64,000 bases of DNA, taken from the sequence record OP555982.1; one strand, written 5' to 3'. The first letter of the stretch is position 1. Every line of letters starts with the position of its first letter. This DNA is from Escherichia phage vB_EcoM-UFV11. Positions 61,203-63,576 of this stretch are shown one piece after another. The notes below the pieces were generated by a model, which had not been told where the DNA came from, searched no databases, and saw nothing but the letters and a program-made list of their open reading frames with translations. A program made the translations under genes and the position numbers.

Positions 61203-61380
61203 CTAAACGAATAGGTTCATGAATGCCATATCCCTGAACAGAAATTTCTGTCGTAGGATAAATTCCATCAATATCACCCATATTCCAGGCTTCGTTAAAT
61301 TGCTGTTCGCCTGAATTACTAAACCACTCGGCGAAAGCATTTAGCACATCTTTAGAACCTTCAATAATTATCTTTGCCAT
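61159..61380 (-). CDS. hypothetical protein
   Basis: 73-aa ORF. Confidence 0.45.
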   Translation of the reverse strand: MAKIIIEGSKDVLNAFAEWFSNSGEQQFNEAWNMGDIDGIYPTTEISVQGYGIHEPIRLVEYDLCTGEEVKYD

Positions 61381-61742
61381 TACAAACTCTCGGTAAAGGT
61401 ACGAGCGATAACGTCGCGCTGCTGTTCCGGAGTCAGAGAGTTAAAGCGAACTGCATAACCGGATACACGGATGGTCAGCTGCGGATATTTTTCCGGATGC
61501 TTAACTGCATCTTCCAGAGTTTCACGACGCAGAACGTTAACGTTCAGGTGTTGACCACCTTCAATTTTAACTGTAGGCTGTTGCTCAATTTCAATTTCAC
61601 GGGCATGCAAACCGTAGAAAATTTCTGGGTCTACAAAAGAGTCCTCTTTAAAAGTTTTAGAGACAATAATTCGTGCTTGAATACCATCTTCAAAATAAAT
61701 AGTACCTTTATGCGTGCCTTCAAGAATTTGATATGCTTTCAT
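61380..61742 (-). CDS. autonomous glycyl radical cofactor (GrcA/YfiD-like)
   Basis: 120-aa ORF; glycyl-radical motif [13 protein letters not shown]; GC-rich 3' half. Confidence 0.85.
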
Positions 61743-61749
61743 ATAAACC

Positions 61750-62079
61750 TCAATTAGAAAATAAATTTATCCAAGATTGTTCTTTAATTAAAAATGGCTC
61801 AGAATCATATGCCATTAAACTCTGCGTGATTAGTCCTTTAAAAGGTCCATCAATAAATTCCATGGTAAAATATGGAATTTTATTCATTAGCCGTGCGTTA
61901 GGAGCAGTACATAAAACTCTGCATCCTTTGAATACGCCTTTTTGTAATTTGTATTGCTTAGGATAAAATTCGCTCAAGACGTTGTTATTTGCCAAAATTT
62001 CAAAATGATTCACCAATTTATTTTTAATAGTTTTTGGCGAAAAATAAAGATATTCGAAAAGTTGCGTGTCTGTCATCAT
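61750..62079 (-). CDS. hypothetical protein
   Basis: ATG at 62079 overlaps upstream stop (ATGA). Confidence 0.45.
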
Positions 62080-62615
62080 TGCATTCCGATTATGAAAAAC
62101 TGTGGACGAGTAATACCACCAATGCAACATTTAATATTACAGCAGCAGTGTACAGTTTCAATATGGACACTATAAATCTTATCCATATCAGGAGATTTGA
62201 CAGGTTCATCAATTATATACAAAATTCGCGAAAGCGATAAACCTCTGAACTTGCTTCCTTTATTACCAATAAAACTGCGCACAGAATCAGCAAATAAACG
62301 AAAACGTATATCATCATTAGAATAACGCGAAAATTCCTTTTTAATGTTATTTGAAGAAATTTTAGCGTAAGCTGAAGTATTAGAAAGAACAATAACTGTT
62401 CCGCCATCATACAACCAATTAGCGGCAAAATTAGTTACTGCAGTTGATTTACCGGATTGACGTCCACCATCTAGTCGAAGTGTGCAATACTGCTTAAGTA
62501 AGTCTTCAAATGGTGGGATATAATCGTTTTTACAAATTTCTTCTACTCTAGCGTCAGAATGGTGTGTAAAAGCATTCATCAGGGATAGATAAGGACCAGT
62601 TAAAAATGTTCTCAT
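62076..62615 (-). CDS. small P-loop NTPase
   Basis: Walker A GGRQSGKST, Walker B ILYIIDEP; start set at ATG 62615 with SD AGAGAGAA. Confidence 0.45.
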   Translation of the reverse strand: MRTFLTGPYLSLMNAFTHHSDARVEEICKNDYIPPFEDLLKQYCTLRLDGGRQSGKSTAVTNFAANWLYDGGTVIVLSNTSAYAKISSNNIKKEFSRYSNDDIRFRLFADSVRSFIGNKGSKFRGLSLSRILYIIDEPVKSPDMDKIYSVHIETVHCCCNIKCCIGGITRPQFFIIGMQ

Positions 62616-62768
62616 TTTATTCTCTCTAAATTTGGGCCATTCCATGGCGCATGAATTGTCCATTTCTGTATTTACCCATTACCGCACTTGGGCTCGACCT
62701 TATTACAGGTTGGCGGGAATCCCTCACAGAATCATGAGGTCCAGCTTGTTCCCATATTTCTTATTTGC

Positions 62769-63242
62769 TTATTTGAATGATTTAACGTACTGAATAGAAC
62801 CTTTACTATTCACAAAGGCAATTTTACCATTTTTGTTATACATAGTAGCAGTACGTTGATAGCCATAAGTTTGTTTACCAGATTGATAACCAACTAATGC
62901 GAAATTATCTTCACCCATTTTATTCTGTTTAGCGCGAATGCGTTCATGACCATGTGCCATAAGAACCTTAGCATCACCAGTTGCAATGGACCGACGAGTT
63001 TTTTCATCTTCAACTGTATTAACAAAGTCGTCAAATGAATCAAATTTAGCATGAGATTTATTATACAGTTTTCCATCTACTGCATAATTATATCCTTGTA
63101 CATCCATCTCAACTTCTGTACCATCATCTAATACCGCAGTAATTTTCTGTCCTTTTTTAAATTTCAAAAGATCAGTAAAAGATTCAGCAATAATTTGAGA
63201 ATTAATAGCTGCTTCAGTAATAAATTCTTTATACGTTTTCAT
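62769..63242 (-). CDS. capsid internal protein (IPIII-like)
   Basis: 157-aa ORF; N-terminal MKTYKEFITEA as in T4 internal-protein targeting sequences. Confidence 0.65.
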   Translation of the reverse strand: MKTYKEFITEAAINSQIIAESFTDLLKFKKGQKITAVLDDGTEVEMDVQGYNYAVDGKLYNKSHAKFDSFDDFVNTVEDEKTRRSIATGDAKVLMAHGHERIRAKQNKMGEDNFALVGYQSGKQTYGYQRTATMYNKNGKIAFVNSKGSIQYVKSFK

Positions 63243-63258
63243 GTGTATCCTTTAATTT

Positions 63259-63576
63259 TTATTCTTTAGGGAAGTTTTTAGAATATGCATCATAAAGCTT
63301 ATTTCCAATACGGCGGAAAACTCTAGCCGCAAAACGATTTTCTGGGTTTTTAATCATGATTTGCATCATATAAGTACCCGCGTCAGAAAGAGCTTCTTCA
63401 TAGTACCCGTTAATTTCTTTAAGAGTCCTACGTTTACCACCAGGACCATCAACAGTGATTTTCCATTTACCTGTAGAAGTGCGACTTGGCGGTTCAACTT
63501 GTTCAATCCAGATATAACCGCCTTCTACACGCTGTCCTGCAACAGATTCTGCAATAAATTCTTTATACGTTTTCAT
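63259..63576 (-). CDS. capsid internal protein (IPII-like)
   Basis: 105-aa ORF; N-terminal MKTYKEFIAES; 5' DNA near-identical to neighbour. Confidence 0.65.
   Translation of the reverse strand: MKTYKEFIAESVAGQRVEGGYIWIEQVEPPSRTSTGKWKITVDGPGGKRRTLKEINGYYEEALSDAGTYMMQIMIKNPENRFAARVFRRIGNKLYDAYSKNFPKE

Follow-up and report, generated by a model that had tools for sequence, protein, structure and literature searches.

Among the small RNAs described in phages, hepatitis delta virus (HDV)-like "theta" ribozymes are said to adjoin phage tRNAs, a description reportedly made by Kienbeck et al. in Nat Commun in 2024. Promoter-early stem-loop (PeSL) cassettes, made of a simple stem-loop and an early promoter, were reportedly described in T4-type phages by Arbiol, Comeau and Krisch in 2010. 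The put antiterminator RNA of HK022 consists of two plain hairpins and is not known outside HK022-like phages. We analyzed 64,000 nucleotides (nt) of Escherichia phage vB_EcoM-UFV11 (record OP555982.1), hereafter the window, where a spacer on the minus strand (62616-62768) lies upstream of the gene vs.8. The orthologous stretch of T4 occupies the same position, immediately 5′ of the internal ATG of vs.8; it is annotated there as coding, namely as the first 40 codons of a Vs.8 protein of 219 amino acids (aa), whereas its frame is broken in the window. Comparison between phages gives good support to the view that this spacer encodes, on the gene strand, a discrete and pseudoknotted structured RNA of ∼120 nt (62634-62753, minus strand). 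An earlier inspection of the letters without database searches (the sequence-only reading) had offered three guesses for the spacer, a deletion scar, a structured leader, or a small RNA, of which the comparative evidence backs the last two.

The 120 nt of the element are 95% identical to the complement of positions 64819-64938 of T4 (NC_000866; count over the 120-nt alignment). When searched by BLAST in a phage collection, a 166-nt spacer query matched 1,033 records and a 52-nt core query 1,093 records, and the 59-nt core is present in ∼1,090 phage records. The T4-like carriers are of Tequatrovirus, Mosigvirus, Jiaodavirus, and Karamvirus type. Unrelated carriers, at 86-95% identity, include Vequintavirinae (naswa, APECc02, and rV5), Phapecoctavirus DE16, Pseudomonas phage PsgM04F, Vibrio phage F93, the 44-kb phage EcoPhCCP1 (one of the ∼45-kb phages), and many uncultivated phage contigs. 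All phages in which the element was found are virulent. No match was found in 5,426 complete Escherichia coli genomes, and an 18-mer sought as an exact match in 185,579 bacterial and archaeal species (one genome per species) returned two matches, both in bacterial metagenome-assembled genomes, both by chance and without flanking similarity; a host origin was rejected on these grounds. The distribution thus indicates an element horizontally shared among unrelated phage families. Coding matches to looser patterns, one PPK2-like (LFEGRDAAGKGG) and one KKKVESKFGK, were also put down to chance. The 52-nt core query further matched 18 Campylobacter and 23 Vibrio phage records (E up to 1), among which the one inspected and confirmed is that of Vibrio phage F93 (L038).

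The covariance model built on the 59-nt core (R1) finds the element in the window at 62665-62723 (minus strand, cmsearch) with 73.5 bits (E 3e-21) and in a single copy, and in T4 with 72.4 bits; in the rest of the genome of phage vB_EcoM-UFV09, scores do not exceed 12.3 bits (E 0.42). The motif lies upstream of vs.8 and on the same strand in 33 of the 34 loci that were retrieved by Vs.8 protein homology alone, among which Vs.8 identity drops to 34-44%. The sole one without the element (L396, 900-1200) is the most divergent (34% identity), with a gap of ∼45 nt between the upstream open reading frame (ORF) and vs.8. The covariance-model search advised by the sequence-only reading was run and recovered the core with our own model and no curated family: five representatives of different lineages gave no Rfam 15 family (4,227 models) over the element at E up to 10 (sequences checked: the window, the rV5-like L004, L040, L006, L041, and L038). 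ARAGORN detected no tRNA or tmRNA gene in the window, and none at the element in other loci, and the Rfam tRNA matches in L040 do not overlap the element; in the absence of a cloverleaf and of such an overlap, an identity as tRNA or tmRNA was rejected. In the literature, we found no paper naming this sequence or a vs.8 leader RNA.

The structure was studied in three alignments: A2, with 44 nonredundant cores; A4, a model-based alignment of 77 hits (64 distinct sequences); and A5, with 14 sequences of T4-like phages carrying the long form. Covariation in these alignments supports a three-way junction (helices Pa, Hb, and Hc) with an invariant core, a 5′ hairpin, and a pseudoknot. In A4, 88% of the cells are paired versus 76.6% in shuffles, and the covariation score is 0.288 versus 0.081, a value reached by none of 500 shuffles and far from slid controls (at most 0.067). 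The whole-structure score of A5 is 0.148 versus 0.035 (slid controls at most 0.039). The sense strand is indicated by G:U pairs and by co-orientation with the flanking genes and tRNAs. In the predicted fold, the 5′ hairpin would stack on a very short Pa, which would open into the three-way junction, and the internal loop would pair with the 3′ tail, resulting in a nested double pseudoknot. In the window, this corresponds to the short form of T4 type, running from helix a to a 3′ hairpin, and the same module is found in 22 aligned T4-like sequences.

The 5′ strand of helix a (GGGAA, 62749-62753) pairs with UUCCC (62715-62719), and 94% of the corresponding cells are paired in A5. One can identify such a hairpin directly 5′ of Pa in every lineage, with unrelated sequences at the equivalent place: besides GGGAA/UUCCC in T4 and the compensatory GGGAG/CUCCC in L025, these are AAAGCUA/UAGCUUU in JD18, GUACC/GGUAC in F93, GCGGC/GCCGC in L086, and GUGUAU/AUACAC in L127. 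The pseudoknot Pk (CUG, 62742-62744, with CAG, 62666-62668) was placed from A5 by position. In A5, all 14 sequences are paired at three positions, with the types CG/AU/GC and GC/CG/AU at two of them. Its equivalents are CUG/CAG in the T4 type, CCAG/CUGG in the rV5 type, GAGG/CCUC or AGGG/CCCU in the L027 type, and CGGA/UCCG or CGGU/GCCG in the DE16 type. For the window we infer Pk rather than demonstrate it, because it is invariant within the T4 type. The inner hairpin (CCUCA-UGAUUCUG-UGAGG, 62722-62739) is present in the minimum-free-energy fold and paired in 98% of A5 cells, and its pairing is kept as CCUUA/UAAGG in L098 and as CUA/UAG in L016 and L058.

The closing helix Pa is formed by GCC (62712-62714) and GGU (62674-62676). 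In A4, its pair 11:49 is CG in 45 rows, GC in 14, and AU in 4, and its pair 12:48 is CG in 45, GC in 9, UA in 9, and AU in 1. Hairpin Hb (ACCU-GUAAUA-AGGU, 62697-62710) has three invariant pairs and the loop pattern G-U-R-N-N-A; its outer A:U pair becomes G:C in two A4 rows and in the second copy of L049/L384. The mini-hairpin Hc (GC-CCAAGU-GC, 62684-62693) covaries at A4 pair 32:39, which is CG in 54 rows, UA in 6, GC in 2, and AU in 1. The strands GGUAAUG (62677-62683) and CGA (62694-62696) make up the junction core, invariant or nearly so in A2. More generally, the junction strands are N (one variable nucleotide), CGA, and GGUAANG, and these are nearly invariant, as is the Hb loop pattern; exceptions are rare: G42 (numbered as in A2/A4) is A in L375 and L377, and G29 is replaced by A, U, or C or is deleted. 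Finally, a 3′ hairpin specific to T4-like phages (GCCA-UGGAA-UGGC, 62636-62648) lies just upstream of the vs.8 ribosome-binding site. It is kept in all T4-like forms, with either vs.8 or an ip gene next to it, and 96% of its A5 cells are paired, with no covariation.

Other pairings were tried. Two alternatives for Pa, the register "c = -1" and the CC:GG pairing of RNAalifold, were discarded, as the cross-lineage covariation fits only the -3/+3 and -4/+4 pairs. A DE16-type alternative (CUAACCU/AGGUUAG) is disfavored by the C/G versus U/A covariation that backs Pa, and a T4-type pairing between Hb loop and tail (CUGUA/UACAG) gives way to Pk, which in the long form occupies the equivalent position and covaries.

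Some lineages carry elaborated versions of the element. In DE16, PsgM04F, and ∼46-kb phages there is an extra outer helix (GUUGUGA/UCACAAC, or AAUG/CAUU in L277; A6 columns 19-30 and 108-116; L040 ∼1947-2068), together with the additional conserved single-stranded blocks GAAAGCAAA and GGUUAGUAG and, ∼60 nt downstream, a long hairpin with a core-like CCUGUGCACAAGGUC. In some Enterobacter-type T4-like contigs (L373, L384, L052, L121, and L049), two tandem copies ∼110 nt apart precede vs.8 (963-1021 and 1077-1133 in L373; 970-1028 and 1083-1139 in L384). In the second copy, which is shortened, UCGAG is replaced by UCAG or CCAG, and Hb is closed by G:C in one of the two lineages.

Reading frames cover the element in some records, and we weighed the explanation that it is protein coding, either as the true N-terminus of Vs.8 (T4, 219 aa) or as a separate peptide of ∼33 aa (UFV09). 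In T4 and L053 the frame stays open, in phase with vs.8, PHANOTATE calls a 33-aa ORF over the element in the UFV09 record (62626-62727 in the window), and two of the four differences between T4 and UFV09 in that frame are synonymous. However, the start codon varies, the ATG of T4 being GTG in the window, and the frame relative to vs.8 is shifted by a deletion of 7 nt in the window and of 8 nt in PP01. No frame is open across all 93 nonredundant copies, that of T4 is interrupted in 32 of them, and ORFs vary in length up to 219 aa, some copies having none that starts upstream of the core. Furthermore, the three codon positions are equally invariant between families, and the compensatory changes are of RNA type. 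The internal Met1 is shared by Vs.8 homologs (MRTFLT/MKTFLT, in 16 of 16, down to 39% identity). Coding is thus very improbable. Because the PHROG profile is 177 aa long, the internal Met1 is invariant, and no frame is consistently open, the T4 extension of 40 codons (NC_000866 64793-64912, minus strand; L003 3294-3413) appears to be spurious, an annotation artifact, the conserved start being the internal ATG that gives 179 aa. The description of the spacer as free of ORFs is approximately right; it overlooks the 33-aa ORF, which starts with GTG, and an in-frame upstream ATG (62663), neither of which is conserved. In most genome records the core is left unannotated.

The spacer is indeed GC-rich, as had been noticed, with 43.8% G+C versus 34.5% for the window (98th percentile of 153-nt windows), and the conserved element reaches 50.8%. 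Also as stated by the sequence-only reading, it lacks an early promoter: on its minus strand we detected no σ70-like promoter and no intrinsic terminator.

The interpretation of the spacer as a scar of denV loss can be assessed by comparing gene orders, e-ipIII-ipII-denV-vs.8-vs.7-vs.6 in T4 and e-ip10-ipIV-[spacer]-vs.8-vs.7-vs.6 in the window. The alignment to the T4 denV region, which had been suggested as a check, shows that the spacer is homologous to T4: positions 61322-62757 align with T4 63500-64942 at 95.5% identity, and the homology stops exactly at the denV stop codon. Since T4 has denV and the same sequence, with homology ending precisely at that stop codon, the spacer is not a scar; it also occurs in ∼1,000 other phage genomes, those of unrelated families included. 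We also considered a DNA-level element without RNA function, such as a recombination junction, a homing-endonuclease site, or a promoter. The homology between T4-type and T2-type cassettes breaks at the upstream edge of the element, and in T4-like phages the element forms the left end of the conserved vs block, with varying upstream neighbors (denV, ipIV, and others). On the other hand, it coexists with denV in T4 and in 26 of the 35 T4-like loci, where denV is found no more than 1.2 kb upstream of vs.8. Unrelated phages also conserve the element, it shows strand-specific compensatory changes and G:U pairs, and it has no promoter match. Scar or DNA-level element, this explanation is hardly credible.

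The absence of denV itself was confirmed. As the sequence-only reading had noticed, no pyrimidine-dimer glycosylase ORF is found at the locus, and tblastn with T4 DenV gave nothing better than E 0.55 in the window and the rest of MZ291552.2, an identical genome; in five control loci the same search gave E values of 1e-58 to 1e-94. The sequence-only reading had named as contrary evidence a denV homolog elsewhere in the genome together with a spacer made of conserved promoter sequence; the genome has no denV and the spacer no promoter. Hence, the phage lacks denV altogether and has a cassette of T2/PP01 type (ip10, ipIV) at the site of ipIII-ipII-denV in T4. This gene is a variable accessory gene among T4-like phages, and its loss is ordinary and already known: denV is present in 479 Escherichia phage records versus 550 for Vs.8, and in 44 Klebsiella phage records versus 162. 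T2, which is more UV-sensitive than T4, has classically had this difference ascribed to the missing v (denV) function, and the T2 record shows the same ip4-spacer arrangement as the window.

In phages outside the T4 group, the element is co-oriented with arrays of tRNA genes, lying within them or within a few hundred nt (at most ∼1.2 kb). This is the case for naswa, L022, L027, L029, DE16, PsgM04F, L042, L045, L051, L056, L063, L055, L127, L044, and L079. In T4-like phages it tends to follow the end of a gene: the upstream stop codon abuts helix a in the T4-, JD18-, SonariX-, and L016-type sequences inspected, with 15 nt between them in the window. Since it has no promoter of its own, the element would be transcribed within a polycistronic early or tRNA transcript. 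It would then act at the RNA level, through its invariant junction, as a self-contained module independent of lineage-specific proteins. In this scheme it would process RNA at operon junctions, either as a self-cleaving ribozyme or as a fold recognized by a conserved host RNase, and processing would separate the upstream message from downstream genes or tRNAs. The association with tRNA arrays, the position at gene ends, the ribozyme-like architecture, and the independence from lineage-specific proteins all favor such a role, and we tentatively rank RNA processing at operon boundaries first among single mechanisms, with ligand sensing, or the binding of a host factor or of RNA polymerase, nearly as likely. 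Taken as a whole, the explanation that fits best, and that we hold with moderate confidence, combines an ordinary gene pair, the absence of denV, and a conserved promoterless RNA module, possibly devoted to RNA processing.

Two further features of the tRNA-associated loci were recorded. In the arrays adjoining the element, tRNA-like genes with anticodons of four bases (atcc, ctgg, gtac; L004 3582-3680, L022 1714-1812, L127 3587-3669, L079 4505-4594) are reported by ARAGORN, and L044 has a tRNA whose anticodon is CTA; they may suppress frameshifts or nonsense codons, or be miscalls. In rV5-like phages, a repeated motif (CCCCUUAGAGGGCUUGAUAGUGC..) occurs on both sides of the element (L004 651-735 and ∼2440-2470; L027 ∼70-100 and 185-215), and naswa annotates the copies as repeat_region.

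Several points weigh against a structured element of this kind, or against its role in processing. The single-sequence fold is no more stable than shuffles (z = +0.36 and -0.07), and the minimum-free-energy z-scores, close to 0 for either strand, are uninformative. Each covarying helix is very short (2 to 4 bp). The three inner pairs of Hb and most junction contacts lie beyond covariation testing because they are invariant. The invariance of the core in A2 is itself partly imposed by the pattern used for collection; the protein-anchored set relaxes it and shows the changes at G29 and G42. For helix a, a permissive permutation test over 26 lineages gave weak statistical support (combined p 0.006). 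In addition, PMC10690425 reports thousands of candidate viral RNAs without names, and the element may be one of them. Finally, the tight linkage with vs.8 in T4-like phages fits a cis-regulatory leader as well.

Such a leader could be riboswitch-like, its junction core binding a small molecule, for example a nucleotide-derived signal, and controlling the block vs.8-vs.7-vs.6-...-vs.4 or the tRNA arrays. Besides the position upstream of vs.8 in 33 of the 34 protein-anchored loci, a conserved hairpin separates the core from the ribosome-binding site in T4-like phages, short covarying helices around an invariant junction are what one expects of an aptamer, and some lineages have segments able to pair alternatively with the 5′ half of Hb. 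Yet the downstream gene is inconsistent between families, there is no Vs.8 homolog in the flanks of 40 non-T4 loci, and in JD18-type phages an ip gene stands between the motif and vs.8. A good σ70-type promoter lies 3′ of the element in rV5-like and ∼45-kb phages, between it and the next gene, which fits a 3′-end element better than a leader. In addition, covariation in the DE16 type favors Pa over the alternative pairing, and no Rfam riboswitch matches. A sensor leader is rather unlikely.

A comparably low probability attaches to the proposal that the element is a binding site or decoy for a conserved host macromolecule, either for put-like antitermination by RNA polymerase or as a mimic that would titrate an RNase, a tRNA-modifying enzyme, or an anticodon nuclease as a counter-defence. 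The core is at least 90% identical over unrelated phages of Enterobacterales, Pseudomonas, and Vibrio, and because this identity spans unrelated phages it fits a partner conserved in hosts rather than in phages; the location within long early or tRNA operons points the same way. The U-G-U of the Hb loop could be likened to the anticodon loops of Q-family tRNAs. On the other side, put RNAs are two simple hairpins and not a pseudoknotted junction. The element is single-copy, unlike sponge RNAs, and it bears no relation to rnaC and rnaD, the stable RNAs of T4. In favor of a decoy, the T4 neighborhood is rich in counter-defence genes (ip genes; PMC9391042).

The genes around the element, all on the minus strand, identify the window as a Tequatrovirus of T2/PP01 type. 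Positions 61300-63300 share 100% identity with vB_EcoM-UFV09, -UFV05, -UFV06, and -UFV10 and ∼96-97% with PP01, AR1, and relatives. Genes were assigned from the curated records of PP01 and AR1 (vs.6, vs.7, vs.8, ipIV, ip10) and from Pfam and PHROG matches. The order starts with the lysozyme gene e (from 63648), ip10-like (63259-63576), and ipIV-like (62769-63242), and continues beyond the spacer with the orthologs of vs.8 (62076-62615, 179 aa; phrog_1488, and annotation of PP01 and T4), vs.7 (61750-62079, 109 aa; phrog_2049, and vs.7 in the PP01 and T4 records), and vs.6 (61380-61742). The vs.6 product is an autonomous glycyl-radical cofactor (GrcA/YfiD-like; Pfam Gly_radical, E 2.5e-18), and this gene was detected in just 11 of the 35 T4-like vs.8 loci (flank covered, 1.2 kb). 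At the start of the window, ∼98 bases (1-98) have no match in three parts of MZ291552.2 (from 63800 to the end of the record) and, by offset, would precede its position 1. The window is probably a differently permuted assembly of the same phage as MZ291552.2.

The sequence-only reading had noticed a P-loop protein of 179 aa with the motifs GGRQSGKS and ILYIIDEP, which is present as described and corresponds to Vs.8, and had coupled it by an ATGA overlap to a partner of 110 aa; the overlap exists, and the partner, Vs.7, has 109 aa. It had also placed this pair where T4 has denV. This does not hold: vs.8 and vs.7 do not replace denV, because T4 carries both next to it, directly downstream. The two genes are an ordinary and already known module of the T4 family, with vs.7 directly downstream of vs.8 in 27 of the 35 T4-like loci. 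Vs.8 matches phrog_1488, a family of unknown function (E 7.3e-79, residues 3-179 to profile positions 2-177 of 177), as Vs.7 matches phrog_2049 (E 2.8e-54), also of unknown function; neither has a Pfam or NCBIfam match reaching cut-off or a PDB sequence match. Vs.8 was found in 1,009 phage records, and among 40 rows sampled across the ranking 39 are T4-like phages of ∼154-175 kb, the remaining one being a partial match in a record of ∼100 kb.

In 16 Vs.8 homologs, DGGRQSGK, which includes the Walker A motif (GGRQSGKS), and the acidic position of Walker B (E137 of IIDEP, in ILYIIDEP) are invariant, and the preceding D is nearly so. The AlphaFold2 model (predicted local distance difference test, pLDDT, 80.8; predicted template modeling score, pTM, 0.82) has one domain, of the additional strand catalytic E (ASCE)/RecA-like ATPase type, and Foldseek relates it only to generic ATPase, helicase, and terminase ATPase domains, with template modeling (TM) scores of at most 0.49. 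Vs.8 is thus predicted to be a small, stand-alone, single-domain ASCE/RecA-like P-loop NTPase. An assignment as the ATPase of a terminase large subunit (TerL; Pfam Terminase_6N, phrog_2) was rejected: it scores 14.3 bits against a gathering cut-off of 22, over the P-loop region only, the protein has 179 aa in a single domain without a nuclease domain, and the best structural match among TerL ATPase domains has a TM score of 0.47.

What is new at this locus is limited to the RNA, a new family with good support; there is nothing unusual in the gene pair or in the loss of denV. T4 is the best-studied virulent phage, and yet the element has been hidden inside a mis-annotated ORF, unnoticed there because it was annotated as the N-terminus of Vs.8. 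Its recognition sets right the gene model of vs.8, both for T4 and for many annotations derived from it. The element is among the most conserved noncoding sequences common to T4-like, rV5-like, Phapecoctavirus, and other large lytic phages, and a pseudoknotted junction with a core invariant across unrelated phages would imply a biochemical activity, be it catalysis or the binding of a ligand or host factor. It could account for the processing or regulation of early and tRNA transcripts of phages. We consider it quite possible, if somewhat short of probable, that it is the founding example of a new class of functional RNAs confined to virulent phages and exchanged among them. This might be a new self-cleaving ribozyme trimming early mRNAs and transcripts of tRNA arrays, or a new aptamer sensing a metabolite, from the host or from immune signaling, and thereby gating counter-defence cargo, such as the tRNA arrays and the vs block with vs.4, which acts against the cyclic oligonucleotide-based antiphage signaling system (CBASS).

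Some further resemblances considered, to ToxI, helix 44 of 23S rRNA (GUAAUA loop), P13/P14 of RNase P RNA, the T-loop, and the anticodon loop of tRNA-Tyr, offered no testable alignment and were dropped. The closest parallel in architecture is found in the HDV-like ribozymes, with which the element shares the order of helices: helix a corresponds to P1, Pk to P2, the inner hairpin to P3, and Pa with the junction to P4. The order P1-P2-P3-P1′-P4-P2′ is found in the pair counts of A5 and, by inspection, in four other lineages. Both are borne by phages, often near tRNA genes, and helix a usually starts with G. However, among the HDV features sought, we found no conserved C in the equivalent of J4/2, no P1.1, and no complement of L3 after helix a′; the strand between the 3′ sides of Pa and Pk is AAAUA in the T4 type, UUUACAUA in the JD18 type, UCU in the rV5 type, and U in the DE16 type. 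Moreover, the invariant nucleotides of the element lie in the equivalent of P4, which is dispensable in HDV ribozymes, and no HDV family of Rfam matches at E up to 10. Because there is neither a conserved J4/2 C nor P1.1, and because the invariant core falls in the P4 equivalent, membership in the HDV-like ribozymes fails despite the shared helix order.

With the hammerhead, twister, pistol, and hatchet ribozymes the element shares a small three-way junction, very short covarying helices, an invariant core, and a sporadic presence in unrelated phages. It differs from the hammerhead in its junction strands (N, CGA, GGUAANG), whose lengths are 1-3-7 from 5′ to 3′ versus 1-7-3, and in having no CUGANGA/GAAA core; it was not assigned to the hammerheads, and no Rfam model of these four ribozymes matches. 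Like rnaC and rnaD of T4 (species 1 and 2 RNA), it is a phage-encoded noncoding RNA of unknown function associated with tRNA genes; kinship was rejected, as neither sequence nor model comparison shows any similarity (R1 stays at or below 7.2 bits across the T4 tRNA region) and the locus is different. The likeness to HK022 put is by description only, both being cis-encoded phage RNAs and both expected to act through a conserved host machine in long operons. Finally, the element shares with PeSL cassettes the character of a short noncoding module at gene boundaries in plastic regions of T4-like genomes. In contrast to these cassettes, it comes without a promoter, has a complex fold, and is conserved far beyond the T4-like phages.

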